From: Gnetum montanum
Taxonomy: Eukaryota > Plantae > Gnetophyta
Assembly: GCA_015680685.1 (NCBI GenBank)
Contig: MNCI01000291.1
Coordinates: 197,853-261,852, forward strand
Length of the DNA: 64,000 nucleotides
Direction: 5' to 3'
The position numbers were made by a program, and so were the translations under genes. Numbering within the stretch: the stretch's first letter is position 1; every line of letters begins with the position of its first letter. The notes under the pieces are model-generated. The model saw only the letters and a list, made by a program, of their open reading frames with translations, was not told the DNA's origin and ran no database searches. Of this stretch, positions 1 through 41,229 are shown one piece after another.

Positions 1-790
1 TTTCATCAAGAAGTTTATACCAGGATTTACTGAGATTATCAAATCTTTGATGTACATGCTCAAAAAGGATGGGTAGGTTAAAAAGACACCAGAATCAAAG
101 AAAACATTAGCTGAAATTAAAAAGACTATTAAGGAAGCCCCATATTTAGTTAAACCAAAATTGAAAGAGGATTTTTAGCTATATGCTTTTACTTCTAGCT
201 ATTCATTCACTACTATCTTAACTCAGAAAAAGAATGGTTAAGATGAACCAATAGAATTCTTGCGTTACTAGCTTAAAGGTTTTTAATTAAATTACTCAGA
301 TTTAGAAAAGTAGGCATACATTATGATTAGACTATTGATGCATTTTAAATATTATTTAGAAAGTGCTTTGATTCATGTCATGATAATGAAGCTTATTGTT
401 AAGTAATTGTTAGCTCAAATTGAAATTAGATTATGAAGAGGAAATTGGATCATTAACCTTCAAAGATTTAGATTTTTTTTATAACTATGCAAAACAATGA
501 AAGGAATGGGATTAACCAAGTTAATGGACAAAGAAGATAAAATTTGTATATTAATCTCCCATAGTGGAAATTGGTATGATGAAATTTTATATTTTTTTCT
601 TCAAGGAAAATCCTAGATAATTTAACTATGAGCTAAAGAAGAGCTTTTCTTAAAAATATAAACAAGTTCTTGATGAAAGATGGAATTTTCTATAGAAAGG
701 ATTTTAGAGGATTTTGATTAGAATGTGTTAGGAATGATCAGATAAAGGTTGTGTTGGACCAATTTCTTAATTAACATGATCTTTTCTATG
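1..790 (+). mobile_element. Degenerate Ty3/gypsy pol fragment (RT C-terminus, RNase H, start of integrase region) from a different, AT-rich family
   Basis: Manual translation gives FIKKFIPGFTEI..., LAEIKKTIKEAPYLVKP, ILTQK, NYSDLEK*AY and GNWYDEILYF, with many stops and frameshifts. No aRH is visible. Confidence 0.75.
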
Positions 791-1294: not shown

Positions 1295-4200
1295 ATGTCT
1301 TTCCAAAAGTCCACCAAATTTTCCTTCACCCTCATTGGTGAAGATCATAGCCAACAAGCCATGAGGATGTATGATCCCAAAGACCTTTTCATCATTGAGT
1401 GTAGGTAATCTTTGAGGGTAAGGAGGAAGAGTCCCAATTTTTCAGCTATAAATGAAGATCATTATAACTTCATTTGTGCTAAAATATAGGCAAGCATGTT
1501 AATTTCACGAATTGAAGCTAAGGCCAAAAGGGAGTTTGGGCTCATACATAGGGGTGGGAAAGAACACATCCCTTCCACGTATGATGAAAGTTTTCTTAAT
1601 AACATCTATTCTAACATCCTAGCCCAATTGATTATCATGGAAGAGGAAGATGACAAGCCTAGCTTTAAGGAATAATAGGAATATGAGGATGAATTTAAGG
1701 TAGAAGCCTGAAAACATCTTGGAAGGAATATTCCAACAAACATCCCCCAATGTCATAGCACCTTTTTCTAATGCTTTTTTTTTTCTTCATGGGCATGGTG
1801 CCACCATCTTCCACTCCTTCCTACCCTACTACAATAGATACCATGCCAATTATAGCCATACATCACACTTATCCAATGTCACAAACAAACCAACTATAAC
1901 ACATCAATGTCATTTACAACATAGTCTTAATACATAAAATCATCAATGGTGGTTTTTACTATAAAAAATCTATTAACTACTCATGTGGGGTCTACCATGG
2001 GACCCCAAGCAACATAGGGGTTGTATACCCCATTTGTCCCATTTGTGCCTCAAATACCAACACAAACATCTTTCTCTTTGTTTGGCCCAAAATCCATAAC
2101 CATAATGCAACCTCTTCCTTCTATCATGCAATCCATAACGAAACCACAAGGCTCACAATAGGTGCCACAACCTTATGTACAAACCCTGCAATCTACGGGG
2201 CCACTGTAAGTCTTGGATCAAGCCTTCCAAATTATCCAAGACCTAATCAAGGAGTTGAAGAGGCTTAAAGCCTCTACCACACACTCTCAAGATTATGGAC
2301 TTCTACTAGGATGATCCCATAAGTTCTATAGTCCCATCCTTGACACTTTCTCCTAGTGTCCCCATTCCCTAATTTAGCAAATATAATGGAGAAGGTGATC
2401 CTAATGCTCATCTTATTACCTTTTGATCTGAATGTTTACTCTTGCAACCATGGCCTCATACCATCATGAGAATTTTTCCTATTTCTTTGACTAGAAAAGC
2501 ACTTAATTGGTACCTTGCATTTCCTTGAGGATCCATATCCTATTTGGAGGACCTAGTAGCCTAATTTGTCAAGTGCTTCAAGTATAACTTGAAGCTTGAC
2601 ATAATTCTTGACCAACTCATGAAGGTCAAGTAAGGGTCCCTAGAGCCCATACAAAAATTCATTCAACAATGGAATGGACTACTAAATGAAATACTAGAGC
2701 CCATAGCCGAAGCTCACTTATTAGCCATATTCAAGGAAGTAGTTATTGACTTCATCAAGTCTAAACTCTAGTACCTTGATTCATGGTCTCTTAGCTAAGC
2801 ATTCTCACAAATTAAAAATATAGAGAATTTTACAAAGGCCAGTCATGATCCTACCTATATAGCATATAAAATTAAACAAACTCAAAGAGACAAAGAAAAG
2901 AGTAAACAAAACAATACTACCATAAAAAATGTAACCAACAAAACCAAGACCACAAACCAAGGGCTACAAGTCAACCTGCCCAAAGCCACCACCAATGACC
3001 ATAATAACCAACCATCAACTTCTGGGACCACTACATCAACAACAAATAGACCTAACTTCAAAAGGAATAACATGTCTAAATACACTATGTTGCCATTAAA
3101 ACCATCTGAGTTATTAGACCAACTATTAAGAAATGGGCATATGCAACATAAACAAATGACTGAAGCTGCTTGAAAGAAACACAAGTGACTATGCAAAATA
3201 GCCAAAGATCCCACTCAGGCAATGAAGAATGATCCCTATTTACCTAGATACTTCAAGCTAGAATAATTTTTCCATTATCATCAACTATCTAATGATGATA
3301 TAGACTTCTGCCTTGAACTGAAGGATGACCTACAAAGAATGGTAGATAAGAGGAAACTAGTCTTAGATGCTTCTAACCTAGTTCAGCCACAAAAATAATT
3401 AATGTAGGTCTACAAAGACCCATTGAATGTTAATGATAGCTCCTAGGTTATTTTGGCATTCAATGTCAATGATAATTAGAAACCTTCAAAAAACCCATTC
3501 ATAGTTCAAGTGCCCCTCTATAATGTAAGGGCTTCTTTGACTTCCCATAGCTCAAGGTCCCTCTTCATGGTAATAGTACCATCATGAATGCCTTTGAGGG
3601 AACCTTTTGTCATCAAGGTCTTCCAACCCAATACAACTCAAACAACTATAGGTGAACCAACTACACAATGACCCCCTATGGTGGCCAATGCTACTGCCTC
3701 TTCCTTATAGCCAATAGCTAACAAATAAAAAACTACAACCAAACAAGGAAAGACGCATAAGCAAAAGCTTACCAATAAGAGAGATAAGCATATGAAGGTA
3801 CAAAAAGAAGTGGGTCCATCGAAGCCTCCTCCCATTTTGACTATACCCATGACCTCCTCTACCCCAACCTCGTCAACCAACAAGCCATAGGAGGACACCA
3901 AAGCCAATAACAAAACAAAAAGAAAGAGCTATAACAACCAAAGCATAAAAGCCAAAGTCTCCATTTTAGGACACATGAAGGAAGTAAAGAACAATGAGGT
4001 TGACAAGTCCACGACCAATGAAAAAAACTTCCTTAGTGCAATGAACCAAGTCAGGCAATCCGTCAAGCAAAAAATATAACCCTAAGCTTGTATGACCTAA
4101 TCATGACTTCCACCATACATTTTTAGGTGCTAGTCAAAATGTTAACCTCTATACCCATTAGTGAGGATATTCTTACTAACAAGAAAGCCATCCATGTAGT

Positions 4201-4928
4201 GATGATTCCTTCTTGACCAAGGAAAGAGAAGTCAACATCCTTAACCTTTTGCAATAGCAAAATTAAGATTAATCCCCAAAATGGCAAAGTGACTATAGCT
4301 CCTTTATTCATAACTATACACATATGAAAATTTAAAATACATTAGGTGCATATTAATGATGGAGCTGCAACCAACAACATCTCATGCACCATCATTGAAC
4401 ACTTGGGCTTAACTAAGCAAGTACAACCTATAACCATCGCAGCTCTTAAATCCTTCAATGAATTAAGAGTTTTCATCAAGGGGTCTATCTCCTTCAATTT
4501 TGTAGTCAAAGAACAATTCCCTACAACCACTAACTTCTTAGTGGTGGAAGAAACACCAGGATTCAACTTGATCCTAGGAAGACCTTGCTTGGCTCAATTA
4601 CAAACTATGTCCTCACCCAACCATCAAGAAATTCACCTTCCTTATTTGGGAGGTAAAATCATCATTGATGGTGATAACATAGCTTCCCTAACTATCAACA
4701 ACATAGACATAGAACAAGGATTCGAAGTGGATCTTGAAGAAGAAGCTCCTAACCATGAAGAGAAAAACCCAAGACATCCAAAAATGACAATGATAGGCAA
4801 TGGAATACATTATGGGATGAACTCCATTTTAACATCATAAGTGAAGGGGATGGTGAATACAAGCTTATGAAAAGTATTCCTTACTCACTCCCTAATCTTA
4901 CAAAGATTAGAAAGAATTTGTACAAGTG
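1295..4928 (+). pseudogene. gag-protease of copy A (degenerate)
   Basis: ATG at 1295. Retrotransposon gag core YNGEGDPNAHL...IFPISLTRKALNWY (~2380-2580). YH..GH/C knuckle-like motif (~3270-3330). Protease VHINDGAATN...FNLILGRP (4346-4600). Ends KIRKNLYK-stop. Confidence 0.85.
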
Positions 4929-5149
4929 AAGTTCACCTTAACCTTCCCATGCCCCTATGCTTAGATGCAACGATAGCCATATAGTCTTATTTTTCATTTA
5001 TAGTTTATTACATATGCAATTGTTGTTTTATGCTTTATGCACATAGCCTAGTGCATGTAGCCTAAGTTTGTTTGCATTTTTATCTACAACCTTTCTTTAT
5101 TTTTACTTATGTTAAACATCAAAAAAAGCATCTGCTCTAGACCATGTTT

Positions 5150-5355
5150 GATAAGATGTTAAAATAGCACTACCATCTACTAAGATGTTAAATTGGCATT
5201 CTCATCCACTAAGACATTAAATTGGCACTACATCTACTAAGATGTTAAATTAGCACTATAGTTTGCTAAGACTCTAAATTAGCAATATGGCCTACCATGG
5301 CCTTAAACTAGCAAAACTATATAGCCTATTCCTACAATGGCCCAAAACTAGCAAA
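5150..5355. repeat. ~29 bp tandem repeat cluster (consensus roughly CATGGCCTACTAAGGCCTTAAACTGGCA)
   Basis: About 6-7 imperfect units such as ctaagatgttaaattggcact. The same repeat occurs at ~15430-15545, ~20005-20080 and in copies B and C. Confidence 0.8.
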
Positions 5356-5660
5356 CATCCCTTTTATTACTATATCTCTCTTTGCTTAGCCTATTATTGC
5401 ATCGATTATCCATTTGATTTTATAACCAAAAACATCGACATAGTGTTTTTCAAGGTTTATAACATTTACAATATTTACTAATACTATAAATGCATATAGC
5501 CAAAATAAAACCAATGTTTAAATTTAAAGTTAAAATGTCCATAACATACATAGCCAAGGCCACATTAAGTGGCAAAAATGTCCAAGAATACAACCATCTA
5601 TAACCTAGTCTTGGCTAGCCATAGCTATTAACATAAAAACAAAAACAAATAGTCAACAAG

Positions 5661-8600
5661 CTAAACTGAAGGAGGCTGCTAAGTGGCAATTAGAGGAGGA
5701 AGTGGTGAGTTATTCCCATCCTCACTGCTAAGGTCACCAATGTCTTCTAAGGCTTGAAATACAACAACATATAATTAGTTAGTAACCCATAGCCAAAATC
5801 ATAACTAAAACAAAGACTAAAACATAAAATATATTAAACTTGTGGAGATTCTAGCTCCATTACTTCTAGGAGTTGATCGGGAAGCCCTTCCTCCAAAAAA
5901 TGGAGGATTTGGTCCTCTATCATGTTGACCTAGTCAACATCCCCAAGATCAATGCCAGAAATAATGGCAGACCTATTTATAGGGGTCCAAGTAGGAGGCT
6001 CATGAGTAGCAACAACTGTAGAGGTCTCACCTACAACTATGGTAATTTGAAGAGTAGGGGATTGCTCCACCTTGAGAGTACTTTTAAAAATTTAATAAAT
6101 ACTCTCCACTTGGATCCCCTAAATGAATAGCTCTCTCTTGTGTCATTCAACTGACTCCTTCTTAAGCCCCTTTAGAGAGGCCCCATTATCAACCTTATAT
6201 TGATGCTTATGAGCCTTTTGTGTCTTGCCCCACTCCAGGAACCAAGCACAGTGATCCTTTTGGTCCTTAGCCTTTTGGAAGATGAGGTTCATCTACATAT
6301 GTTGTTCCTCCATCTCCCATAGGATTGCTACTTTGTCCTAAATAACATGATAGTAGTGGGCCCACATGATCTTCTTAGTCTGTAACTTTCCTGAGTTAGC
6401 CACTTGGGCTTCCACAAAGGCTTTATGATCATAGAGATCTCTAATTATGTCCTCCTACCTTTGACTCTTTTCCCTTAAGGCCACAACTTCCTCCCATAGG
6501 GATTTGTTGGACCTCTCTAGCTTCCATAATGTTTTTGAGCATGACATCACTAAATTAGTAGCAGGCTCATACAACTTCATGGGTACACTAGATACATTAG
6601 AAGGATGCTTAGGCAAGGATTATATCTTCATGTCTCTAATGGGGTCCCACTCCATGGAGGGTACTATACAAGCACAAAATACAACCATAAAACAAAACCT
6701 AAAATAGCCATAATGCAAGAAAATCCCATGACTAAAGCACATAAAACAAAATCCTTAGCTATATTAGGTGCAACCTAATGCAACCAATCAATGATGTCCT
6801 TAGCCATCCCATGCAAGAACTCCACTTTGTCTAGAGTCTCTACCCATGGTTTCACACAAAACCTAGGGGTAGGAGTTGGCACTAGTAGTTCAAGAACTAC
6901 TGTAAGCATAACAATCATTGAAAGGTTAGGATGGCAACCAAATATAACCAATGAGATATAACAAAAATGTTAAGGCATAGGCATACATGACTCCTTCTCC
7001 TCTTCCTCCTTTGGAATGATGATGGGAGAGGTACCTAGTACCACCTCACCCAACAAGGCATCTAAATCATCTATACCTACATCAGTAAGTCCTTCAACCA
7101 TAGGTTTCTTTAGGAGTTTCTCTTCTACACACCTTTGTTCTACCTCCACAACAACTTTGGCTACTATAACCTGATGCTTATCTACAACCCTAGTACATAC
7201 AAAATTTCTTGACACATGAAACCACAAAGTAGCCATAAATTTTTAAAACATGAAATAGCCAAATTTAAACAAAGAATACCTACAACTACCTAATATGATG
7301 GCTTAAGCTTAAACTTAAGCTTCTTTGAGGTAGGTTGATCTGATGTTGGGGATGCCTCCTTAATAGGCCTCTTGAGTTTCTCCTTGGCTACCTCTTCAAC
7401 CTACATACACCATCACCTAGCATCCTAAACACTAGCAAGAAATGAGAGGGGCTCATCATCATCAGTATTATCAAGAGACTTCTACTACCCAACATCAAGA
7501 TTCTTAGTGGTGATGGATAACATATCATCCTTTGGTGGGTTCTAGGCCTCCATTGTTAGATAAATGTGCTTTATCCAAGGCCTAGAAAGTTGGCTTGATC
7601 TTGGGAAACCCATTATCCATTCCTATACACCACCAGAAACTCTTCAAACCTCTTTAGATAACCTACAAAAAATGCATAGTACATATGGATTATCATAGAG
7701 GTATCAACATGAAGTCTAAGGATCTCCTCTCGAAGCCAAGCCAAAGTAGTCACCCAATCAAATCTGATGCCCTCTACAAGACCTTCTTAAGGGTCCATCC
7801 TTATGCTAAGCCAATTACCTTCTTTTGTGATAGCTATTTGGGAAATGCACGAGACCTAAATAAAGGATATGATTCCTTTATATCAAGGTTTATGATGCTA
7901 TCCATTGAAATTTTAGAGTGGCCCATGTTGGCACCAACCCACTTTAGAACTTCCTTGTGGTGGCCCAATTTCCTTATTGTCTTGGTGGGAACATTTTCCC
8001 CATCAGTAGGAACACCAAACAAGTTGCAAAAGAGGCTAGCACCTATGTCCATGTTGACCTTCACATCTCAAATGATGGTGCTAAAATGACCAATATTCTC
8101 ATCAAAGGAGTCAATGACATGCAACATCTCTATAGCAGGAATAGAAGGGATAGGTGTCATGAATACATCAAGCAAACTTGCATGCAAGATGTTTTCTTGA
8201 ACATATATAGGTGCTTGTCCCTTTATTCATTCCTATGATGATGTCACTTTACCAAACTTCAAAATGAGGGTATCCTCATGACACAAACTTGAAAGTGATA
8301 TAGTGACATCAACCAAGGTGGAAGGTCCTACAAAGCAATAACCAAAGTTTACCATCAATATGAGAAATTTCAATGATTAAGAAAAGTAATAGAGCACTCA
8401 AAGTTATAGCCTTTACATTTACCTTTCCTTTTCTGCTATGATGTGGAGGCCCTGGCTACAAGGGTTTGATCCATGCTATCAACATCTACCTACCAGTTGT
8501 GCATCATCTTATCATCCTTACACTTTTTTTATACATGGTTAAACTTGGTGGCATATTCATCAAAGTCCCCTCTTAAATGTTAATACATAGCAATTCTAAT

Positions 8601-11065
8601 TTAAGGACTCTTGATGAATTTGTCCAAAGTAGTTTGAGCCACTGCCAGGATTTGATCATTGGCGATCAAGCCCTAATCATTGACCTTGTACCTACAAGAA
8701 GTTGTAACATCAATGAAGTTAGGGAAGGTAATCAAGCCAAAAGCATAAAAGCATTACAATAACCATGTTTACCTCTATAGGTAGTACATGGCTCTAAGTA
8801 GGTTCTTGAATAATGTGTATGCTCTATGTGCCATCATCAAAGTATTGTCAGTATTATACTAACTATACTCTAGCATCATCCATATCTCTGAAAGGTAAAA
8901 TGAATGTATGGCATCTACTAGTCCCCCTATAGTCTTAGGAAGTGGCCTATCAATAATGTATTTGGTAATCAAGCTGAATGTTCAAGGCAAAAAGGTCTCC
9001 ACAACAACCCTAGCTACATTTGCAAACAAGTGTGACCACAACATCACACTAATGTTTTTAAGGAGGTAGGCAAGGAAGTCCCTTTCCCCAAGTTGAAACC
9101 ACAACAAGAGCTTTCTAAAAGGCATGTCATGTGGTGGGGTGTTGGTCTTAGGATGACCAATGTAGCAAAAGATACCAACTAGCTCCACTATGATGAGAAT
9201 AGGCCTCAAGAAGACCATGCATGAAGCAAAATACAAAAACATTATAACCAATTGAAATTACTTAACAAAAAGATAAAACATCTAGTTGAAGTGAAATTAG
9301 CCTTTGTAAAAATCTCTAAGATGTTTTTCTAAATTAGTCTAAGTAATTCCACAAGAAAACATTATTACAACCTTGCATAACCTTGCATCATGACCAATTG
9401 GAATTTCTTAACAAATTAAGGAAAAACTTCCTAAGTCAAAGGTGAAATTAGCCTCTATAAAAAGCTCTTAGATGTTTATCTAAATTAGCTTAAGAAATTC
9501 CATAAAAGCATTGTTACCTTATTTTATAGCCTTCATAGCCAAAACATTATAGCTTAAATTAAGCCTTAGCCTAAATTATGCATAAATTTAGAAATTGCAT
9601 CTAAGTTATGCATGAACTTGGAAAAAACATGCAAGTTATGCATAAATTTAGAAATAGCATCTACATTATGCACAAATTTAGAAAAAGCAAGAATAAGTTT
9701 AGAAAAAACATTTAAATTATGCAAAGCATGCATAAATTTGGAAAAATTATCTAAGCTATGCACAAATTTAGAAAAAGCATAATAAACTTAGAAAAAGCCA
9801 TATAGCCATAGTAAAAGCTTATTTAAAATAGAGAAAGGTTTTACTCTTCTTGAAAAAGAAAAAGAAAGCATTAATTTTAAATGTTCACAAAATAAAAACA
9901 TAAGTTATACATGTCAACCACTTCTATTTTCAAATGGGTAATGTACTACAACCATGAGTTTTACCTTGATTCACATAGCCATAGCAAAAAATTCGTAAAA
10001 AACTTTTTTGAGCTCCAAACAAAGTGATTCCACCACCAGTTGAAAGCTTAAATTAAGACCTACATAGGCATGCTTATAAAAAATTCAAAACATTTTCCAT
10101 GTATGTGGGAAAAATTCATCAATTTGGACAATAATCTAAAAATAGCACAAACATCCTTATTACACATGCCTAAGTAAAAAATTCGTAGAAAATTCATTTT
10201 AAGTTCAATCAGAGTGATTCCACCTCTGTTGAAAAGATGAAGCCAATGCCTATCTATCCATAGCTATAAAATAGCCAAAAAATTTTCTTTTTTCTTATAA
10301 AAAATCCACAAAATTACATAAAATTACAAAAGTGACACAAACAACCTAATTGCACAATGTTAGGAAAACAACCATAACTTCTTTGTTTCAAGGTCAAATT
10401 AAATGAGATAATAGCCATCAGAAAGATCAAATAAAGGGCTAGAAAACCATAACCTTAAATTTTACAAATTTTTAGCTGTTCTACCAAGAAAACAATATAC
10501 AGCTTTACTTTCTTTTTCATATCAAAACTTCAAAAATCTCAAAACCTAGATTTTATATAGCCATGGAAATAATGGAAACAACCAAAACCATTGAAACACA
10601 TTAAAATTCACATAAAAATAATGGGGTAGGATTTTTCTTACAATTTAATTTTAACAAATCCTAAAGCCTAGATCTAAAAAGAATGGCCACACCCCAAGAT
10701 TTTGCAAAAAATGCATGAAACAACAAACCATATTTTTAGAATCAAATATATGAAAGCGAAAGTGATGAAACAACTATAGATCTGCATGGGAGCAGCCAAA
10801 ATAGAAGATGAAATTTCATAAAAATTCCATTTTAATCCCTCCACTAGGTATATTTGAAAAAATGACCTCAACACATAAGAAGCAAAAAACTTAAAAAACC
10901 ACAAGAAACAAAGGCAAAAATAGGTAGAACTGCCTACCTTTGAGCAATAATAGAAGAAGCATCAATGGAGATGGGCCTAGGAACTTCTCCTAAATTCCAA
11001 TAACATTCATCCATCTTCTAAATTATAGGAGTTTGGGTCTTTCCCCCTCATTTCTTTGGTGCCAT
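5661..11065 (-). pseudogene. Antisense ~8-exon accessory gene of copy A (plant-transposon-protein-like domain plus coiled-coil C-terminus), degenerate
   Basis: Exons at ~11065-10938 (MAPKK.GGK...), 9216-8773, 8691-8423, 8327-7280, ~7215-6985, ~6900-6760, ~6662-5840 and ~5755-5661. Introns are GT-AG, with matching phases at the first three junctions (2, 2, 1). ORF-track peptides 7834..8064, 8982..9251 and 6970..7236 match those of copies C and B. Confidence 0.8.
9250..9800. repeat. Intronic repeats: duplicated ~150 bp unit (9250-9540) and ~32 bp tandem array (aaattatgcataaatttagaaaaagcat)
   Basis: About 7 visible units at 9565-9800. They produce the spurious repetitive ORF 9566..9763. A shorter version lies at ~49940-50030 in copy C. 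Confidence 0.8.
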
Positions 11066-11679
11066 GGCAGGCTCAACATTGGGAATGGCTGAAAACTAAA
11101 GAAGGATGAGAGGTTAATGCTAGTTGCGAGGAAGATGGGAGGCTTCTACACTAAGAATTGGTTGTTTCTACTACAAGAACCTCTTCCAAAGATCTCTTCC
11201 ATTGTGTTGTTTCTATAGAATGATGGTTGTGATCAAAACTTGCAAAATTTGACATATAAAACTCATCTAAACCCTAAACACACACCTTGAAGCCCCATCT
11301 ACCAATTCAATGCATCATAACTAAAGGTGCATTGAAGTAAAAGAGGGAAAAGTCTAGTTCATGTTAATTTTGGATGGGAAACAACTTCACTTTTCAAAAT
11401 TTTAAAATGTTTTGGATTGTGGGCCCCCACCCTACACCTTCATTCTTAACCAAAACTTGTATCAATGCTAAAATTTTTGCAAATTTTCACACTTAAAAAA
11501 TTATGGAAACCTTAACCCCATGCATCCATGCTAGGAATACCATGCCTAGAATTGAAACATGCCTATTATTTTATAAATTCATTAAAATTACCAATATTTT
11601 TCTATTTTTAGTAATCCAAACTTGCCTTTTTCACCTCAAATTTCCAAAAGTGGGTAAGACATGAGCAAGGCTAAACACC

Positions 11680-14600
11680 ATGAATTTCCATGCTAGGGTA
11701 GCAATTCCCAACATGGAAGAAGAGGGGTGACATTCACTCTTACCTCCCAACATCCATCTAGTGCAAGTTTGACCCCAAAGTGGGCCCCACATAGCCTAGA
11801 AGCCCTCTAAGCATCTCTGACAACCTCGAAATCCCATCAAAACTAGTCAAAATTGGTTAAAATGTAGGATTTAGTGTTTTCCAAATTAAGGGAGGCTTCT
11901 TCCATGTTGAGCCTCTTACCCTCAATGTGGATAGATCGGGGGAAGCAAAAAAATAACCTAAATTAATGACCTAACCATTTCTTAATGCCCAATAACCCCT
12001 AGACCTTGCTAGAACCCTCTAGAGCATCTAAAAGCCCCAAAATTGGTTCCAAGCGGTAAAAAAATGACATACCCCTCTCATCCATGCTGAGGCCACCATG
12101 TCCAATGTGGAAGAAAGTGGGGATATTGCATGAGGTACTTGGAAGCCTCCAAATTATCAAATCTTGACACCCAACATTAACCATCAACACTAGCAACCCC
12201 AAAGGTTGACATGCATAGTTGATCGGTTGTCAATTTGGCCTAGATTTGAATTTCTTTATTAGGGAAGACCACTTCCATGTTGAGCCTTCCATCCTCAATA
12301 TGGAAAAAGGGGGAATCCTAAAAACCCCCTCACAACCTCCGAAATGATAGATCTTGACCATAGGCACTGATGCCCAACACCAACAACCCTGTAAACACTC
12401 ATGCATAGTATGATTAATCATAAAAGGATTAAAAATATTTCCCCCCAATCTTCCACACTAAGCATGGGAGTCCTAGCATGGAAAAAAATGGGCGAAGCCC
12501 AAAAATTACCTAATGACCTTTAAAATAGCCAAATTTTGACAATAGATGTTCACATTCAATACCAATAACCTTAGAAGCTTACATGCATGACCGAAAATGA
12601 TCAAAAAGATTTTTTCCTAATTTTCCATGCTAATCATGGAATCCCTAGCATGAAAAAAAAGGGAGGAACCTCAAAAAATGCCTAGTGATCCTTGAAATAG
12701 CCAAATTTTGACAATAGATGGCAGCAGTTGACACTAGCAACCTTAGAAGCCTACATGCATAACTGAAAGTGATCACAAAGGGTCAAAAATAATTCACCCA
12801 AATTTTCCACACTGAGCATGGAAGCCCCAACATGAAAAAATGAAGGGAAGCCCAAAAATTACCTACTGACCCTTAAAATAGCCAAATTTTGACAATAGAT
12901 GGTAGTAGTCAACACTAGCAACCTTAGAAGCCTACATGCATAATTGAAAGTGATCACAAAGGGCTAAAAACCTTCCCACCCCCCACCCCCCAACCAATTT
13001 TCCACACTGAGCATGGAATCCCTAGCATGAAAAAAATGGGAAATCCCAAAAAATGCCTAGTGATCCTTGAAAAAGCCAAACTTCAACAATAGATGGCAGT
13101 AGTCAATAGTAGTAACCTTAGAATCCCGCATGCATAACTGAAAGTGACCACAAACCCCCAATTTTCCACATTGAGCATGGAAGCCCCAACATGGAAAAAA
13201 TGAGGGAATCTCAACAACCACTCATCAACCTTCAAAATAGGAAAATTTTAACACTAGGCTTTGACCATCATCACTAGCAACCTTGGGGACCTACATGCAT
13301 GATCAAAATTAATGCAAAAGTATAAAAATCTATTTTCCCCCAATTCTCACATTGAGAATACTATCCCTAGTATGGAAAAAGAGGGGGAAGGTCAAAAACC
13401 ACTTGGAAAACCTATAAACTAACTTGCTTTGACTCCACACCCTAGCCTTCAACCTTGATAGTTCCTAAGGCTGACATGCATGGTCAATTGAAGTCAAAAC
13501 TAGACTATATCAAAGTTTTATGGTGTCTCTACATTGGAAATTCTTTGGTCCATGCTGCTTAGCATGGAAATTAAGGGGGAAACCTATTTGGAATTCATAA
13601 CTACCTTAGAACAACATTAACTGAGCTTGCATGCACTCTAGGACCTTGTCGACATCATTTGGAGCCTTCAAACTTCAAGGAACTAATGTCAGAAGGATAA
13701 AAATTGATTCCCCTAGTTTTCCACATTTAGAATCTTAGTTCTAGCATGGAAAAAATTTATAAGCCTAAAAAAATCTTAGAAATATCCAAAATAACCAAAA
13801 TTTGATGCCAAACCCTAGTCCTTAACCCTACTCACCCTAGAGGTTGACATGCACACTCGATTGAGGTCAAAATTACTCTAGATCTAAGTTGCATGATTCT
13901 TCACACTAGGGATCCATTTTTCCATGCCTAGGGTGGTATCCATAGCATGTAAACGCAAGGGGAAACTTGTTTGAAACTCATAAACACCTCATAATAACAT
14001 TAAATGACATTTCATGCACTCTAGAACCCTGGCAGCAATCATTGGAGCCATTAAACTTCATGAAACTGATCCTAGATGGCCAAAAGGTGGTTCCCCCTAA
14101 TTTTTCATGCTATGATCTTCATCCCCAATGTGGAAAAAGGATAGAAAAAACCACTTATGAATGTTCAAAACTGCTAAATTTTGACATGAATCCATAGCCC
14201 TTAACCCTGGTAACTCCAAGAGGTAACATGCACGGTCGATTGTGATGCAAATTGGCCTAGATCTAGGATTATTGCTTCTTCCATGCTGAAGTAACTTCCC
14301 TAAATTGAAAAAAATTTGGAAAGCTACTATTTTACTTTTGGAGATAAGATGCCATTCCCAGAAGCCAAAGATCTAGGCTGGAGAAGCCTAGGATAACATA
14401 GCCTCAAGATTTTTCTTATCTAACCTTATTTCAACCTCCAAAACTCATTCCCCCCATTCTTCCATGTTGGAGTAACTCCCCCAACGTGGGAATATGGGGA
14501 AGACCTTAATTACCCTTAAACATCCTTCAAACGTATCTGAAGTTAGCCAAAAGCTTGTAGAATCGAAGTCTACGACCCTAGGGTTCTTGAAACCTAGTCA

Positions 14601-15070
14601 TAGTGTCCCCAAATCACTCTAACTTCATAAAATAAGTATTCCCCTATTTTTCCATGCTGAGGATACTATGACCAACATGGAAAAAAGAGGGGAAAGTTAT
14701 TTTGACACCTAGTGACACTCAAACTAGCCTTAAATTACCTCAACACGAAGCCAAGAGATGCACAAGTTTTAGATCTAGACTCCAATCACTTGTTTGATCA
14801 TATTTGACCTCATTTTTTCTTTAATTCTGGTTTTTCATGCTAAACCCCCTCTTTTCCATGCTAGCTAATGTGGAAACAAGGGGGAAAGGCTTCAAAACTT
14901 TCTTTTTGACCTTTATAAACCTTTAAAGTACCCAATTTTAATCGATCTAACCTTGTGCTACCTTGGGAAGGTTCCAAAACCTTGGTTTTAGACTCTGAGC
15001 ATCCCAAAACCTATTTTCTTTAGTTTTCATACTAAAGGTCCTTGTTTCCACGCTAAGCCCAACATGGAAG
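11680..15070. repeat. Internal array of ~170-190 bp units, each with an inverted-repeat core TTCCA(C/T)(G/A)CT...AG(C/T)(G/A)TGGAA
   Basis: Cores at ~11685, 11900, 12080, 12272, 12450, 12622, 12804, 12999, 13162, 13343, 13527, 13719, 13920, 14102, 14279, 14460, 14649, 14853 and 15046. Confidence 0.85.
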
Positions 15071-15760
15071 CCTCAAAACACTTGATTTATAGGTCCAAAC
15101 AACCCAAAAATAACCCTAATTAATGCCTAAACTCACCTAATAGCCCTGTAGCCTTAAAACATGGCCTACTAAGGTCTAAAACTAACAAAACCTAATCATG
15201 TTTTTACCTATACTAGCCAAATTTTATCATATATAACCTATTTTTCTTGATTTTTTCCCTATTACATAATGTTTTAGCTTGTTTTTAGACTTATGTTATC
15301 TTGTTAAACTTGTTAACCTTCTATGGCTTTTATACAACCTTATATGTTCATGTTTTTCTTATTATAGCTCTATTTTCCTTTGTTTGGCCTTTAAATGATA
15401 TCAAATAGTGGGGTTTGACCTTTCCTAACCACCGTTTGACACCATATGACCATGGCCTGCTAAGGCCTTAAACTGCCATCATAGTCCACTAAGACTGTAA
15501 ACTGGCATCATGGCCCACTAAGGTCTAAAACTAGCAAAAATTGTGGCCTTTGTTGACCATTTGTAGCCTTATAATTCCCCTTGTTTGACCTTTATGTGAT
15601 CTTTTTTTGCCTCTATTGCAATTTTCCAAATTGACCTTATCTTTCTAATGACCTTGAATGGCCTTGATTACATTAGATTTGCATGCGTTTTATGTTATTT
15701 TAACATTATTTATTTACTTTTATCTAGGGGCCACTTAATATGCTTTTGGTTGACATGTAG

Positions 15761-18700
15761 GATCAAAGTATGAGTACCTAGGAGTAAATTAATTTGCCTT
15801 TGTATCTACATGGACCTCACGATGATATTGAATGGTGTATCAACCCTAATTGCCTAGATCTTAAGTTTGAGAGTCTTGTAGACCACATAGCCTTAATAGA
15901 GAAACCTAGTCAAAACCCTTGACTTAGAAGCAAGAGACATAACTAAAGATTCTTTAGTTGAGGTTCCTATCACAACACGTAGTGGTAAGGAGAAAACCCT
16001 TAAACTAAGTTCCTTACTAGAGCCTCAATGTGCCCAAGACATCACCAAAGTCTTATAGAATAGCATTAAGGCATTTTCCTGGTCATATGAAGATATGTTA
16101 GGCCTAGACCCACATTTAATCTAGCATGACATCATATTGGACCCTAGCATTAGACTAGTTAAGAAAAAAGTGCACAAGATTAAACCTGATTTGGCCTTGG
16201 TAGTTTGCAATGAAATCATAAAGCTCTACCAAGCAAGTTTCATTAGGGCTATCGATTATGTAGAATGGGTATCCAACATAGTGGTAGTTCCTAGGAAAAA
16301 TGGGAGTATCTATATTTGCATTGATTTTTGAGACCTAAATAATGCAACCATCATGGATGACTTCCCTTTGCCTAGTATTGATCAACTTATCAATACTATA
16401 GTTGGACATGTCATGTTGTCCTTTATGGATGGATTCTTGGGATATAACCAAATTAGGATCAACCTAGAGCATCAACTTAGCATGACCTTTATGATCCCAT
16501 GGGGTACTTTTTGTTATACCATGATGTGCTTTGGCCTTAAAAATGCTAGAGCAACATACCAAAGAGCCATGAGCTATATCTTCAGTGATTACATGTTAGG
16601 TTTGCTTAATGATTACGTAGATGACATAGCTATGAAATCTAAGATAGTCAATGACCATGCTAATGACCTAGATATTGTTTCAAATATGAGCTTAGGCTCA
16701 ATTCTAAGAAGTATGTCTTCAGTTCCAAGATTGGTAAGATGCTTGGCTTTGTAGTCTTTGAAGTAGGGATACATGTAGATCTTGATAAGGTTAAGGCCAT
16801 ATCCGAATTAGCAACACCTATCAATCTTAAAGAGCTTTAGGGATTACAAGGTAGATTATAGTTTATTCATAGGTTTATTGCTAGGCTTATAGATAAGTTA
16901 CAACCCATGAAACACTTGCTTAAGAAAGGAGTTCACTATGAGTAGATGACTCAATGCAAAGAGGCCTTTGAAAACCTTAAACAAGAATTAACACAACTGC
17001 CAACAATTTATCCTCCATAAGAAGGTAAATCATTTTACATTTATCTTGTCATCTTTGATACATACATTACCTCTCTACTCTACCAGAAGCATGATGATGA
17101 ATTAGAAATGCATGTATACTACCTTAACCATGTTTTAGTTCCCCACAAGACTTGATACACTAAAGTGGAGAAGTATTGTCTAGCACTAGTCTTCTCTTTG
17201 AAGAAATAAAGACACTAACTCTTCAAAAGCCAAGTCAACGTAATTTGCAAGGACAACATACTCAAAGCCATAATGACCAACATCTATGAAAGTAGCTGTA
17301 TAGCCCAATGGAAAGTCATAACCATGGAGTTCGACCTCCATTACATCTCTCAATGCTCAACAAAAGGTCAGGCTATAACTGTACAACTCACAATTTTACC
17401 TATTAATGACCAAGCAACCATAGATCTTGAGTTCCCTAATGAACACATTAACCTAGTTAGCTAAGTGCCCAAGGATTATGAGGTAGTCATGAACTTCAAT
17501 GGAGCTTCAACTGCCCATGGGGCTAGTGTTGTTGCCATCGTAACATTCGCACCTAGTGAGATCTGATGCTTTGCCTATCATTTTAAGTTCCCATGTACCA
17601 ACAACATAGTGGCATATGAGGGTTTGATCAAATGAATAATGGTAGCTTGTAACCTAGAAATTAGATGCCTAGCCATCAAAGGTGATTCACAACTTGTGGT
17701 TAACCAAGTAATCAAAGACTATGCATGCAAAGCTAAGTACTTATAGCCTTACTGTGACCTAGGAAAGTAGTTATTACAACAATTCATAGACATTGATTTC
17801 CAACACATACCTAGAAACGAAAACATTGTAGTTGATAAAATTGCAACATTAGCCCTTAGTGTGATGGTAGATGTGTTTAGCAAGTTGTCCACATTAACTG
17901 TGGATTGTGCTACTTCCATTACACAAAACACTAACGATACCTTTATGGCCATCATTCATACTGCTCCTTCCAAGAAGTGGTATGATGATCTCAAATTTTA
18001 CATTATGCATGGTGAATCCTCACAAGGTGTAACTACTACTTAGAAGGACACCATATGCAAGAGATCGAAGCAGTATGTCGTTGTAGGTGATAACACATTA
18101 TGTCAATGATCTTATGATGGCATGCTTTTAAAGTGCTTAGGTAAAACTGAAGCTGGAACAATCCTAAAGGAGGTTCATGAGGGAGTGTGTGGAGGACATA
18201 TAGGACTTAGAGCCATGGATTCTAAGATTAGATGGTTAGGCTACTATTGGCCCCATATGGAAAATGACTAATTGCAAAAGGTTAAGTGATGTGACACATG
18301 CCAATGATATATTAACCTAATATATGTATCACTAATTGAGTTACATACAACCTAGATAACATGGTCATTTCAACGATGAGGGTTGGATATCATTGGACCC
18401 ATAATGCCTAAGTCTTCCATAGGACATAGCTTCATCATCACTACAACCAAATACTTTACCAAGTGGATTGAGGCTATTTCACTAAGGAACATCACATCTA
18501 AACAAGTTTGCAAATTTATCCTAGATGACATTGTAGCTCGTTTTAGCATACCCATGACCATAGTTACAGATAATGGACCTTAATTTAGTAGCCAAGAAAC
18601 CAAGGATTTTTATCACAACCTAAGCATTAAGCATTCTTTCTTGTCACCTTACTACCCTCAAGCCAATAGACAAGCGGAAGCAAGCAACAAGGCAATCATC

Positions 18701-19960
18701 AACTTGCTCAAGTAGATGCTCAACAACAGCAAACAGAAATGACATGAGCTACTTGCCCATGAACTATGGGTATAAAAAACAACCTATCACTTGACAACTA
18801 GTGATGAGCCATGATATCACGTCCTACCTCATCTTCTATAAATAAGAGGCGGCACCCTTTGTTCCAGGGGAGTTAGACTTAGACCCTTAGCCAGATTCTT
18901 GTAGTTTTTTTATTCCAGAGTTAGAATTGTTTCCGTGTGCCAGCAGTAGGAGTCATAGAGTGAATGGATCTTTATTCGAGAAATTTGTACTTGAGCACAA
19001 TTTTGTGTACGGCAATAAAGAAGAACTTTATGATAAACCTTGCAGCATACCGATGAAGCTAAGTAGTAATTAATTATTTTTAATGCTTTCCTAGCTAATT
19101 AATATCTCTCTCAACCTTCAACCCCCTTAGTTAAATACACTCAGTACAATCGCTTCGAGCATACGTGTAGCGCTTGGTAACCCAGTAACAATTAGCGTTT
19201 GGTAATCCCAGTAGTGTTGCACTAGTTCAGGATGTGTACGGCAAGTGGGAATGGATACTGGTGTTAGGAACATTTAGAAACTAGTTAACAAATAGTTAAT
19301 GTAAGTTAGCCACTTAGTTCTCTTTCCTTCCCCTTTATTAGCAGAAGACATAAAAAAATATAAAAGCTATAAAAATCATGTACCTCAAGCTTACTTAACC
19401 ATACAATCGTGATAATACAAGTAGGTTTGGGAAGACAACGATTGATTAACCCTGAGTGTTCCATTAAGGCACGTAAGCACTTAGTCCTTGGAGTTTGACC
19501 GGATCGTGCGTGAAATGCTCGTATTCGTATGGTTGAGTGTAGGGGTACCTTGCCACTCATCAACTAGCATGATCCCTTATAGCCTTATTTATGGTTTTGA
19601 AGATATTTTACCTCTTGAATTGTAGGTTTCATCGCTCGAAGTAGCCTTGACCAAGTTCATCAATAATAAGAAAAATAAGGAGTTACAGATATCAGCCCTG
19701 GATTTGATGGAGGAGCGACATATGCAAGTGCTTGCTGACATTGATCATTATCAAAAGAGGCAAAAGCAAAAACATCATTATAACTTGACCATGCACAAGA
19801 TCAAGGAGGGGGACCTAGTCCTCAAGGTTGTTTGTAAGCATGTGCATCCTTCCTTGTTACTAGAGCCTATGAGAATGGAGCATTTAGAATAGCCAACATG
19901 GATGGAAATGAGCTAGTCAATCCAGTCAATCATTCATATCCAAAGCCATACTACATGTAG
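15761..19960 (+). pseudogene. pol of copy A: RT - RNase H - archaeal-type RNase H - integrase (degenerate, interrupted by a solo LTR)
   Basis: RT motifs AFSWSYEDM, EWVSNIVVVPRKNG, DDFPLPSID, SFMDGFLGYNQI, FGLKNA.ATYQR, YVDD (~16614). aRH motifs TNNIVAYEGL, IKGDSQLVVNQV, HIPRNEN (~17490-17850). INT motifs HEGVCGGH, CDTCQ, GLDIIGPI, TDNGP, YYPQAN.QAEASNK. Confidence 0.92.
18802..19562 (+). mobile_element. Solo LTR (Athila-like) inserted in the integrase of copy A
   Basis: TGATGAG...CTCATCA termini with a perfect 5-bp TSD ACTAG. TATA box CTATAAATA at ~18835 and AATAAA at ~19014. Homologous to 31043-32109. Confidence 0.9.
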
Positions 19961-20210
19961 CTAATAATCATCAACAAGAAAGCTTGCTTTTAATGATCCG
20001 TTACAACCTTAAACTAGCAACATGGCCTGCCAAGGCCTTAAACTGGTATCATGGCCTACCATGACCTTAAACTAGCAACTGTGCTAACCTAGATAGTTTG
20101 ATTCTCATGTGGCCTATATGCATTGTAGTGTTATGATATGTAGTGGTGTTTTATATTCTTTGTTGATGTCTCTTGAGTTAATCTTCCAAGCACCAACAAA
20201 GAAGGGCAAT

Positions 20211-21801
20211 TGAAACACCATAAAAATTTGCATGTTATAGTCAATCTTCATCATGAAGCTTTCACCCCATGAAACCCAAGGCAAAACTTCATTGTAAATG
20301 TGAAAATTGTAGCCCACAATGGACAATTTCACATACTTTATACTTTCAGGGCTGAAAAATGCCTCATAAGTGGTTAAAGCCTCATTCCCCACGTAAAAAA
20401 AGTCACCTAGTATCTATATTTGGGCTTTGAGAGGGGGGGAGGGGTCAAAAACGCCTTTTGGAATGTTAAAAAAGTCAATTTGATGGGTTTTATGAGGGGT
20501 ATACATTTTTCTATGCTAGAAACACATGTAGGGGGTAGATCTCACCTACCCTCAATGTGGAAGGATGGGGGTTTTGGAAACCTTTTTCCTTCAACATGGA
20601 GACCACATGCATAGCTTGGAAATATTCCTTCCTCAACATAGAAGTTTTTCCCCAACATGGAAACTTTTCCCTCTTAGCATAAAAGTTTCCCCCTAACGTC
20701 AAGTTTTCATCTCCAACGTGGAAAATTCAATCCCCCAATGTGGAAGCCACAAAAGCAAAAATCCATCACTTCATGCACTTCAACATTGACCAACCACTTT
20801 AACAAACATAGTGGAGAGCTCAATGTGGAAGATTCATCTCTAGCGTGGAAGGTGTGCCCTGGGTACTATTTATAGTAAACAAAATAGACATGGGGGGAAG
20901 CACATACTATGTATGGTAAGCCCCTAAATTTGGGCACCCATCTTACCTAAAATGGCAGCAAATTTATAGCCATTTGACAACCAATTTGTAGCCAAATCAT
21001 AGCCAATTTGCAACCCCATTCATGACCCAAAGATCCTATAAAATCCAAACTCAAACAGCATTGAGAGGTTCTAGAATTTTTAGCAAGTTTAGCATTTTTT
21101 TGTTCAACAATTTCAAACAAGTTCAGCATTATCAAGCAATTTTTTTTGGCATACACAACATTTTTCAGAATTCCACACTTGGGGCATTCTTAGGCACTCG
21201 AGAGCTTTTGCAAGTTCCCATACTTGCATTCTCTTGAACCCTAGTATAGAAGTATTGTAGCCTTAAGATTTGTCGATTTTGGGTGTTAACACTATACCTC
21301 TAGGATTTCCAAACCCCAGTGTGGAGCAATTTAGCATCCAAATTTTCCACTTTTCTCACCCCCCAACAGTGATCCAACTTGTAGATCTAAGGTTGTAGTA
21401 GTGAAGGAAGGTTTGATAGCATTAAGAGTGGCTTAGCACCCAAATTGTGAAGTAGATCACATTGGCTTCAACGGGCTTTGAACTCTTGCATAAGTGAATC
21501 CCATTTTTGCTTATCCAAGCACCATTTGTACACATTTCTCTAACTTATTCTTTATTCTTTCTTAATAAAGTTTTAAGTTTTGAGTTTTGTGTTCAAAAAA
21601 TAAATTTATCTTCTATGCATTATTTGGATTTGTTTATATTCCCACATTTCGCATCTCATAAATCCTTGGTTGATTTGTCAAACCAACTAGGGTACCTTGA
21701 ATCCCATTTCTCTAGTGGAGGCCCTAGGGATTCAGGGTTGGGGAATTGCTGCATTGAGGATCCTTGGTTTTTTCTAGTAATCAAGGTTTTCGATCACAAC
21801 A
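20211..21801 (+). repeat. 3' LTR of copy A
   Basis: TG...CA ends, directly after the PPT. Homologous to 34478-36017, 39598-41104 and 59152-60728. Sense TATA-like CCTATAAAA at ~21034 and AATAAA at ~21564. Confidence 0.9.
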
Positions 21802-22735
21802 TTAAGAAAAGATTAACAAAGCAGTGTGGTCCAAAGTAGGCGCTAATAAGGTCTACATTAAGTTTGCACTTAACCCATACTTATTTGCTATTAATATGGA
21901 TGAATTAACAAAGAAAATACAAGATAAAATCCCTTGGTATATGCTATTTGTAGATGATATTGTGTTGGTGATACATATTAAGAAAATATTGCTATTAAAA
22001 TAAAGAAATGGATACATGCTTTAGAATCAAAAGGCTTAAAAATTAGCAAAAGTAAGATAGAATATATGAAATGCAATTTTAATAATAGCATAAATAGTGG
22101 TGAAATAGAAGTGACTATTCAAGGCCAAAAAAAAAAAGTCCCTCAGTGCAAACAGTTTTTTTACCTAGGATCAATCTTCCAATGAGATGGTGAATTTGAT
22201 AAAGATATCAAAAATAGAATTGAGGCAAGATAGTCAAAATGAAGGCACCCTTGTGATATTCTATGTGATAAAAGAATACCAATAAAATTAAAGGGGAAAT
22301 TTTATGGGACAATAGTTAGGCCTACTATCTTATATGATGTTGAATGCTAGGCCGTACAAAAGAGGAATGAACAACAAATCAGTGTGGTAGAAATGTATAT
22401 GTTTCTATGGATGTTAAACGTTACTAGAAAAGATAAATTACATAATACAAACATTAGAGGAAGACTTGGAGTGGGTTCTATTTCAAATAAGTTACAAAAA
22501 TGGTGGCAAAGAAAATTAGACAATAAGCCTATAAGCAAAGGTTGTGACATCACTATTCTAGGAAAGCCATTGAAAGGAAGACCAAAGATGACATGGGAAA
22601 ATCCAATCGAAGATTATTTGAAGAAACTACAAATAAACAAAGATCTAACTCTTTATAGAGGCCAATGGCAAAAAAGAGCTCATGTAGCCGACCCCATTTT
22701 GTTGGGGCAAGGCTAGGATAATGATGATGATGGTA
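21802..22735 (+). mobile_element. 5'-truncated RTE-clade LINE (RT C-terminus and 3' end), degenerate
   Basis: Peptides ALNPYLFAINMDEL, PWYMLFVDDIVL, ALESKGLKISKSK.EYM, FYLGSI, IPIKLKGKFYGTIVRPTILY, GRPKMTW. 3' hairpin gccgacccca...tggggcaaggc followed by a (TGA)n tail. Confidence 0.9.
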
Positions 22736-22925
22736 ATCTCTTTTTACTCTTTAGATAAATCTTCTTGGGTAATCTCTTCCATTGTATGGTTCATGATATG
22801 TATTTTATTTATGTTTTGATAATGTGGTGGAGTTAGCATAGCTCCATTCAAAGTTGTGGAATTCATAATTTTTGTGCCAATATTTAATTTAAAATTATTG
22901 AAAAATATCCAGTGAAAAAAAAAAA

Positions 22926-23176: not shown

Positions 23177-23206
23177 TAGTTTAAGCATGCAAGAACTATT
23201 CCGGAC

Positions 23207-23279
23207 CGACTCCACTGGGGATCGAACCCAGAATCTCCGGTTCCGTAGACCGGCGCCTTATCCATTGGGCCATGGAGTC
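23207..23279 (-). tRNA. tRNA-Arg(ACG)
   Basis: 73 nt: GACTCCATGGCCCAATGGATAAGGCGCCGGTCTACGGAACCGGAGATTCTGGGTTCGATCCCCAGTGGAGTCG. All stems pair, the anticodon is ACG, and A and B boxes are intact. Confidence 0.97.
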
Positions 23280-25045
23280 ATTATTTAGTAGGTTTCTTAT
23301 TTGTACACATACTATGTCGTATAGAAAAATATATTTCATAAATTTATCGGATATTGTTCTTCTCATCTGAGACTTGTGAGGAAAGATAAAAATATCCAAA
23401 AGCCTTTTTAGCTGACCACGTATTCACCCAATAAACATGAGTTTGCTGATGACACAGCCATAACCGTCTTTGAAGCGGTGCTTATACGGCTCTGCACTCA
23501 CACTGAATGTGATGCTCAACCTGGCCAATAATACTGTTTCCTCATCAATTTCCCATAAAATTCATAACCAATTTGGTTGGTTCACCACTTTCTTATTCGA
23601 GGTTAAGTCACACATTGTTTGGTGGCAGCAGTAATATATAAACAATAACAAGTGACCCTGTACATATCACGATAAACATTATGAAGAAATTTGGTGTATT
23701 CTCTGTTCAATTACCGTCAGGATCAGTACCCGGCTAACAAGCATGGATTGCACATTTTGTATGCTCACAAAAGGTATATATGTAATGTTCGATCATATAT
23801 CTATTTGGAGGACTTGATCTTGTGCAATTCATGCACGTTAGCCTGGCTCTGGCCCTGATCTTATCAAATCAAAAATTTATACTTGTGAAGGAAGCACAAC
23901 CCAGAACTATAGATCATGTTTTCTTCGTCTTTATTTTGAGGTAGGTCTCTTAATCATCTCGCTGGATCTCAGTAGTATGTTTATGCATTGCCTTTTTTTT
24001 AATGGGTTGCAGCTGCCGGTAGCTTTACTTTTCTGCAGTCTTTGGTTCTGCTGTCTGACCAAAGACTGCATTTTGGATTTCTAAATCCTGATACTTTGTA
24101 ATATTTCTACTGATGAAATTACTCTTAATTTTGAGCATCTTCCTCTTCAAATATCCATTTATGTCTCTGTGATGTAGATGCGTACATTTTCAATGTAGAT
24201 GAGGCTGCTGAGCAGCTCGCCCCTTCCAACTGGAAGAAATGATTTCTGTGATTACAATCATTTTATGTGCGATCTGATATCAGAAACTCATGCAGCATAT
24301 GAATTAGTAGACAATAAGTTCAAGTGTTTTCACATCTCAAAAATAGCCGTGAAGAATTCTGTTATTTACTTATTTATATGGGAAGAAAAATTACAAATAG
24401 ATCAAACTTTAGCTCTTATAGAGGCAAACGGCTAACGATAACTCAGTAGCCAGCGCCATATTCTAATCCCAATGTGCCAGACAGCATCAATATTTCAAAA
24501 GAATTTGTAACCTACCCTTCATGGTGTAAACCAAAATAATCAAGAAACGAAATAAAATGAACAATTAAAAATTCACCCAGAGCTGTCCAAATTTCACATT
24601 CTTTGCTTAAAATACTCGATATGTACAGTGTTGATGAAATAAATCACCAAGACGATTCGATGCATATAATGTCAACGAGTTTACACCAGTAAATAGTTCC
24701 GAGTCTTTCTTAACAAGCAAGAACATAAATATTTTGCTTGATTATTTACCTACCACAGTTTCCAATAGCCACCCTAAATTTCTTAGAAAAAACAATACAC
24801 CCATATTATATAAAACAGTGAAAATTTTAGTAGTACTGATCGTCTTTGAGAATCTGGTTCATAACAGCTCTGATATGCTTAGAAAATCTAAACAATACAC
24901 CCACTTGTTCTTCATTTCAAGGTTGCACTTCCTCTTTCCATTTGCTTCCAGACAAATAGTTTCATTTTGCTAGTGGGGCTCTTACCTTGAATAACTGTAA
25001 GGTCGTCCATCAAATGAGGAGTCTTGAAACATAAATTGTGAATAA

Positions 25046-30890: not shown

Positions 30891-31042
30891 TACACTCACA
30901 ACTAAGTAAAAACTCATCCTTGAGTAAACATAAATAGGATTGAGGTTCTTACAAAATTGGGAAGGTATGAAATTATTGATTGACTAGCTAACTACTGATT
31001 GACTCTAAGTGCTGAGTTATAGAAAATTACAAAATAGGTATT

Positions 31043-32109: not shown

Positions 32110-32199
32110 GTATCTAGGACAACAAAATTGGACACCTTTTACAACATTGATACCAGGATCCCTCTAATTGTTGTAGATGGGACGAAGTTCAAATAGTGC

Positions 32200-36017: not shown

Positions 36018-36023
36018 GTTTTC

Positions 36024-41129: not shown

Positions 41130-41229
41130 CCTCTACCCAATTTCTATGCCAAAATCTATTAACCATATTGCCAACATTGTCTTCTAGTAATAAATTTGCA
41201 TTTTTGCAGCTAAGACATTGAAAGATCAA

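Follow-up and report, generated by a model that had tools for sequence, protein, structure and literature searches.

A Tat-clade retrotransposon family of Gnetum montanum with an 11-kb spacer, most likely an enlarged intron, that holds a likely antisense gene between gag-PR and pol

The window analyzed here was a stretch of 64,000 nucleotides from Gnetum montanum (contig MNCI01000291.1 of assembly GCA_015680685.1, positions 197,853 to 261,852 of the forward strand), and all coordinates refer to its first letter. Self-BLAST detected three copies (A, B and C) of one long terminal repeat (LTR) retrotransposon family in this window. Copies A and C displayed the same order, in which gag, with the protease (PR) in A, was followed by a spacer of 10.8 kb (A) or 10.3 kb (C) and then by reverse transcriptase (RT), RNase H (RH), an additional RNase H (aRH) and integrase (INT). 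Copy A spanned approximately 858-21801 on the plus strand. Its leader remnant (858-1294) matched the leaders of B and C, and its 5' LTR and primer binding site (PBS) are absent from the window. The broken gag-PR frame (1295-4929) starts with the gag ATG at 1295, and includes the capsid at about 2300-2730 and the protease at 4163-4651. It is followed by the PR-RT spacer (4926-15760, plus strand, 10,835 bp), the broken pol frame (15761-19960) with the INT stop at 19958-19960, and the 3' LTR (20209-21801). The pol of copy A, read with X at stops, matched in succession the Pfam models RVT_1, RT_RNaseH, RVT_3 (aRH), Integrase_H2C2 (zinc finger of INT) and rve. Its gag gave a weak Pfam match (E 0.016), and the protease, without a Pfam match, resembled proteases found in RT relatives (E 1e-9).

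Copy C (39597-60728, plus strand) has both LTRs, a PBS at 41113, a spacer at 45235-55511 and a ~460-bp direct duplication in its leader (41200-42158). It is missing the counterparts of A 3997-4756, which include the protease, and of A 11045-11900. Copy B was split by C into a left part (34476-39592, plus strand) with the 5' LTR, the PBS at 36024 and gag, and a right part (60729-64000, plus strand) with the protease, the stop, a repeat block and the 3' exons of the antisense gene, this part being truncated at the edge of the window; B is without A 6706-7492. LTRs, PBS and polypurine tract were identified in the family. The PBS, which we take to be of the Asn type, did not match in B and C the 3' end of the tRNA-Arg(ACG) of the window, the one Arg isoacceptor compared. 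The coding frames have decayed: each was interrupted by stops and frameshifts, and the CpG observed/expected ratio was 0.04-0.26 in the copies vs. 0.53 in a neighboring stretch. The LTR pair of copy C differed by a Kimura two-parameter distance (K2P) of 0.234, and the target site duplication (TSD) of C had decayed past reading. Two solo LTRs have entered the copies, an older one of another abundant family in the INT of A (18802-19563, plus strand) and a young one in the spacer of C (50549-51351, minus strand, spanning a gap of 415 N), each with a 5-bp TSD.

The split of gag-pro from pol in the original prediction was borne out, with the stop at 4927-4929 and the pol side from 15761 in A, and at 45236-45238 and from 55512 in C. 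That gag-pro and pol occur in both copies holds for A, while C has lost its protease. Copy B, described as having the same left half, does share the left part but is more distant, split and shortened as given above. The spacer had been called colinear in all copies; by self-BLAST it was colinear in blocks between A and C, and the evidence amounts to these two complete copies and 3.3 kb of B. Only A and C display the whole layout, because C is without the protease on its gag side and the right half of B lies beyond the window.

Divergence of the spacer kept pace with that of gag, pol and LTR. Between A and C, K2P was 0.284 for gag, 0.282 for the left spacer, 0.265 for the right spacer with pol, and 0.292 for the 3' end with the LTR. 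Between A and B it was 0.442 for gag, 0.423 for PR with the 3' part of the antisense gene, 0.386 for the part with exon 3, and 0.414 for the LTR. The copies are independent insertions: C sits in the protease region of B, separating two positions that directly follow each other in A (4162/4163), and the sequences flanking A and C on the 3' side were unrelated (score 29; shuffle mean 33). Low-stringency self-BLAST found no match between spacer and LTR, and no TSD belonging to the spacer itself was found. A scan for terminal inverted repeats gave scores of 48 and 47, not above the shuffle maxima of 48 and 60, and CACTA ends or terminal inverted repeats as spacer boundaries were rejected. In a public set of genomic contigs (X1) matched at 80% likeness, the summed depth, which is not equal to copy number, was 9.6-26.9 thousand in the gag-PR bins and 8.6-17.3 thousand in the antisense-gene bins, and contigs of a second organism (X2) gave a profile of the same shape. 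The flat K2P, the separate insertions and the gag-like depth agree with the earlier claim that the cassette is not a nested insertion in these copies; its lack of LTRs or a TSD of its own, also claimed, was upheld by the self-BLAST and the shuffle-tested scan.

At the left end of the spacer, a donor-like GT (4926 in A) overlaps the gag-PR stop and is followed by U-rich DNA in all three copies. At the right end, a U-rich tract and an acceptor-like site precede pol, with the AG (15759-15760) present in A and absent in C. A second AG lies eight bases on (15767-15768), and joining the donor to it would fuse the gag-PR and pol frames. The pol ATG at 15770, ten bases past the acceptor-like site, was identical in A and C. 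These sites suggest that the spacer is most likely the PR-RT intron of the Ogre type, enlarged about 40-fold.

Within the spacer, comparison of reading frames in A, B and C gave a model of an antisense gene on the minus strand (5500-11065), with the ATG at 11065, coding sequence to about 5670 and a 3' untranslated region to about 5500. Its seven exons were placed at 11065-10938, 9216-8423, 8327-7280, 7181-6987, 6899-6775, 6663-5840 and 5753-about 5670. The donors were GT at all six junctions in both A and C. The acceptors were AG at 4/6 junctions in A, 3/6 in C and 2/2 in B, each junction having it in at least one copy. The introns, within approximate bounds, contained 44-51% T (U-rich) vs. 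26-31% in exons. The reading phase was compatible at five of the six junctions, an agreement that was partly selected, the splice sites having been chosen by eye. The seven-exon structure is likely.

The ratio of nonsynonymous to synonymous substitution (dN/dS) between A and B was 0.27 in exon 6 and 0.45 in exon 3, compared with 0.18 in gag and 0.27 in the protease control. The proposed minus frame had the lowest or near-lowest dN/dS of the six frames in all five comparisons made (0.27, 0.45, 0.54, 0.46 and 0.43). These ratios indicate that the antisense frames were under selection, which lasted after the split of the A and B subfamilies. The splice-site pattern, the U-rich introns and the dN/dS of the minus frame all favor the multi-exon gene of the original prediction. 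In exon 6, a crude heptad score found one stretch of 28 residues, and a coiled coil is only suggested there. TRP28 (PF04195) did not match exons 2, 3 and 6, a search in which frame decay lowers sensitivity, and PMD (PF10536) did not match at E<=1 or E<=10. A guess by eye that the protein is of the PMD type was unsupported, the homologue searches being empty, and the idea that exons 2 and 3 are duplicates was rejected.

Upstream of the antisense start lies a degenerate array (11850-14730) of ~170-195-bp units, each with one copy of a short palindrome motif. Its core (12422-13154) consists of units of 172-194 bp, and a low-identity extension covers approximately 11850-14730. Eleven palindrome sites were found in the window, ten of them in two arrays, against 0.58 expected and with 0 of 100 shuffles as high, an enrichment that is partly circular as the pattern was derived from the array itself. 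Half-sites per kb numbered 11-12 in the arrays; LTRs and leaders had 6-9, and coding or neighboring DNA had 3-6. The array is predicted to be the promoter region of the antisense gene. A 29-bp repeat formed three blocks on the plus strand, after gag-PR (5146-5354), before pol (15450-15549), and after INT ahead of the polypurine tract (19993-20082). Inside these blocks were 22 of the 23 plus-strand matches, where shuffles gave 0-3. The two spacer ends have only this block in common, the same one that also follows INT. Duplication of an ancestral intron as a whole around the cassette was rejected, since similarity beyond the 29-bp blocks was not above shuffles (11, 17, 199 and 124 of 200). Intron 1 of the antisense gene contains separate 30-bp tandem repeats (9571-9776).

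RNA of a relative was seen at the 3' end of the antisense gene. In two stranded runs of one study (first mate on the plus strand), minus-strand reads piled up at 5503-5903 (17.8 vs. 0.4; 14.6 vs. 0.09). Loose poly(T) ends just before 5502, a position without a genomic T-run in A, B or C, occurred on 15 and 16 reads. A diverged relative thus makes polyadenylated RNA from the minus strand, which ends at the place matching the 3' end of the antisense gene. The strand sense was verified on the poly(A) of a solo LTR in read set X13. Two other minus-strand signals from relatives were recorded. One at 4307-4342 in the protease (30 and 23 reads) may be antisense read-through into gag-PR, and the other at 7502-7538, near the end of exon 3 in B (92 and 69 reads), is possibly a second 3' end or a retained intron.

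Taken together, we favor, with a probability of about 0.6, an old Tat-clade Ty3/gypsy family in which a likely Ogre-type intron of ~11 kb separates gag-PR from pol and holds a likely seven-exon antisense accessory gene and a palindrome array as its predicted promoter. The unspliced LTR transcript (~20 kb) would serve as genome and as Gag-PR mRNA, and splicing out the spacer would join pol to gag-PR. The choice of acceptor would decide the product, the second AG giving the fused frame and the first AG a stop followed by restart at the pol ATG. Transcription of the antisense gene would run from the array in the direction of gag-PR, and its protein is predicted to be a nuclear helper of the element, like that of Grande gene23 or the antisense proteins of Retand and Ogre. 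More speculatively, this protein might bind the palindromes (LTR and leader, too, are enriched in their half-sites), and the cassette probably came from the usual place between pol and the 3' LTR, through recombination of the 29-bp blocks flanking both the cassette and pol.

Several observations weigh against this reading. It rests on two complete copies, both old. Joining the donor to the first AG gave no fused gag-PR/pol frame, as gag-PR then stops four codons on, with the stop overlapping the pol ATG. In the antisense gene, besides the choice of splice sites by eye, junction 5 was out of phase and copy B was without exons 4 and 5. A non-coding control reached a dN/dS of 0.43 in one frame between A and C, and therefore the A-C values of the antisense frames weigh little. 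The mirror plus frame of exon 3 was equally low (0.43-0.45), so dN/dS alone leaves the strand there unfixed. No homologue of the antisense protein was found for exon 3 against longer proteins or by profile against 1.84 billion representatives, nor for exon 2 against proteins of near length, and exons 2, 3 and 6 had no Pfam match. The AlphaFold models were unusable (mean predicted local distance difference test scores 33.2 and 33.8). Contig depth in X1 was just 2.7-5.4 thousand over the array and 27-70 thousand over pol, 3-5-fold the spacer depth; relatives that have no cassette or have strongly diverged may thus be common. The RNA reads were mostly less than 90% alike and fitted only in part, and come from relatives of possibly other layout. 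The minus-strand excess in X13 extended over gag and part of pol too. No splice joints of any kind were found in four RNA runs, and no PR-to-RT joint was among the 15 joints listed, with 4,414 more outside the listing. Three contig joints, 5284-20009, 5311-20061 and 5314-20050 (sides of 20-29 bases), may be deletion derivatives or repeat artefacts and were not used.

In foamy viruses pol is made from its own mRNA, and foamy and complex retroviruses have accessory and antisense genes and possibly separate translation of pol. The family might likewise split its expression, with pol made from its own mRNA, by a bidirectional promoter in the array or by splicing from the leader, and started at ATG 15770, and with a gag-PR RNA that may end in the first repeat block. 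The identity of this ATG in A and C, the out-of-frame junction with the first AG, the position of the array between two divergent gene starts and the occurrence of the same 29-bp block after both gag-PR and INT would all suit such a system. Against it, the donor-like site falls exactly on the gag-PR stop in 3/3 copies, as an Ogre-type intron predicts, the second AG yields an in-frame fusion, and short reads showed no RNA starts in the array, where RNA depth was near zero. The enlarged intron is the simpler fit, because a donor-like site lies on the stop and an acceptor-like site before pol, and we consider a separate pol unit unlikely. The viral likeness also has limits, since the family has no env and its PR stays with Gag, whereas foamy PR stays with RT. 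From the complex-retrovirus-like element first proposed, the Tat order, a cassette that travelled with the family and a selected multi-exon antisense gene can be kept, and a separately expressed pol is the unlikely part.

Less probable still is a passenger, that is, a host gene or DNA transposon that entered a short PR-RT intron of one ancestor and was tolerated, as it is spliced out, and carried along without benefit to the element. Seven exons with plant-like introns do resemble a captured gene, and two exons are gone from B; yet the A-B dN/dS of 0.27 and 0.45 points to selection after the subfamily split, the cassette lacks its own terminal repeats and TSD, Pfam and protein searches found no host or transposase homologue, and a relative still makes polyadenylated RNA. 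One chimeric locus, nested or misassembled and then duplicated within the region, is very improbable and largely refuted. In its favor, the three copies share a single 64-kb window, C has an assembly gap and no public contig spans the whole element. Against it, the flanks are unrelated and the copies carry LTRs of their own, the nesting of C within B is clean, B has diverged far more, and the spacer occurs at high copy in X1 and X2.

The family belongs to the Tat clade and is Ogre-like in layout, and the RT-RH-aRH-INT order found by Pfam agrees with the Tat-type assignment made before. In copy A, aRH lies between RH and INT, a placement common to Ogre, Retand and non-angiosperm clusters. TatI, TatII and TatIII of REXdb have aRH before RT or after INT according to the accessible part of PMC6317226, and membership in these groups was rejected on this position. 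The best RT matches were 45-52% identical, the named ones coming from poplar, grape, beech and others, and in the nearest named RT cluster, that of avocado, gag-PR-G-patch and pol occupy separate open reading frames (ORFs). In a tree of 53 of 118 usable RT matches with A and C, built without outgroup or labelled references, A and C paired on a long branch apart. By eye, the RT was without a small insertion shown by three Ogre references in the part of the PMC11963269 supplement that was accessible.

Ogre (REXdb Tat/Ogre; TatIV and TatV of Ustyantsev et al., 2015) resembles the family in the RT-RH-aRH-INT order, the separate gag-PR and pol ORFs with an intron (here a likely one) between them, the very large size (up to 24 kb) and extra ORFs with a coiled-coil C-terminus, which is only suggested here, and the best RT matches share this layout. 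In the available text of PMC6317226, PR and RT of Ogre are separated by an intron of 274 bp on average that is spliced from some of the transcripts, whereas the gap here is ~10.8 kb. The extra gene of Ogre lies either 5' of gag, in sense orientation, or 3' of pol and is often of the PMD type, but here it lies inside the gap and has no PMD match; no G-patch was seen after PR, and the RT sits on a long branch. In the excerpts covered, 89% of Ogre members have a tRNA-Arg PBS. Retand (Grande, RIRE2 and Tat4; PMC11963269, in part) likewise has an antisense gene and a tandem array as a block, which lies between pol and the 3' LTR and not between PR and RT. The stretch from pol to the 3' LTR measures ~250 bp in our family (INT stop 19960, LTR 20209) vs. 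2.9-6.6 kb with antisense ORFs in Retand, and our LTR is ~1.55 kb vs. 315-1,194 bp; the seven-exon model and the lack of a TRP28 match are further differences. The array lies upstream of the antisense start, as the promoter of Grande gene23 lies upstream of that gene (PMC7264820, in part). The non-angiosperm RH-aRH Tat clusters (Tat J, Tat K and others; PMC10508981, PMC13468544), compared by description only, share the aRH position and are candidate groups for the family, and none of the five aRH arrangements described in the parts available has a gene between PR and RT.

In the accessible parts of PMC6317226 and PMC7264820, the extra genes that plant LTR elements carry were placed in just two classes, 5' of gag and 3' of pol. 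The available portions of PMC4408406, PMC6317226, PMC11963269, PMC7264820, PMC13468544, PMC12786077 and PMC10508981 describe no gene in the PR-RT interval, a coverage from which subscription papers were mostly absent and in which the element table and FASTA of PMC6317226 may contain such elements. Within that literature, the prediction that no lineage has been described with a multi-exon antisense gene and an array between PR and RT stands. A split of gag-PR and pol, an antisense extra gene and a tandem array are each known singly in Ogre or Retand. New relative to the literature covered are the arrangement of the parts, the length of the gap and the orphan gene of likely seven exons, with the gene position as the new point.

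The rest of the window contains host genes and other repeats. A host multi-exon transporter gene (24987-28424, minus strand; Pfam CitMHS/ArsB), presumably of the Lsi2-like silicon efflux type, is intact between repeats, and the tRNA-Arg(ACG) gene of the host (23206-23280, minus strand) was the only match of an Rfam scan. Solo LTRs of the other very abundant, transcribed family occur at 18802-19563, 30160-32110 and 50549-51351, with poly(A) at 19037 in 295 X13 reads. This family moved recently, because two copies (31043-31345 and 50549-50851) were 98% identical; the PBS-like start behind its LTR is presumably of the tRNA-Asp type (Athila-like). A decayed LINE fragment, which we take to be RTE-like from its RT motif, directly follows the 3' LTR of copy A (21802-22750, plus strand). 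An RNase H/integrase remnant of an unrelated element (1-780, plus strand) adjoins the truncated 5' end of A, and another decayed retroelement piece (32200-34300, minus strand) lies upstream of the 5' LTR of copy B.

A bolder version, which we hold only tentatively and consider doubtful as a whole, is that the copies represent an undescribed Tat lineage of ~22 kb whose PR-RT intron would be a 10-kb cargo bay for a spliced gene of a new family. Pol would be made by stop-restart or from a separate mRNA, the protein of this gene, on the palindromes of array and LTR, would sustain transcription, young members would still be expressed, and length-limited LTR pipelines would have missed the layout. 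For the favored reading, the PR-RT junction would be a third slot for extra genes, as the intron split opens room for cargo. If this is true, the cargo would be dropped from the spliced RNA yet kept in the genome RNA, and a spliceosome-dependent gene with its own promoter would sit midway along a reverse-transcribed genome whose size approaches the known limit. Elements of such a layout would be annotated as two fragments. The element would also be a natural test of the function of accessory protein and array, which the literature on Retand and Ogre has left open.

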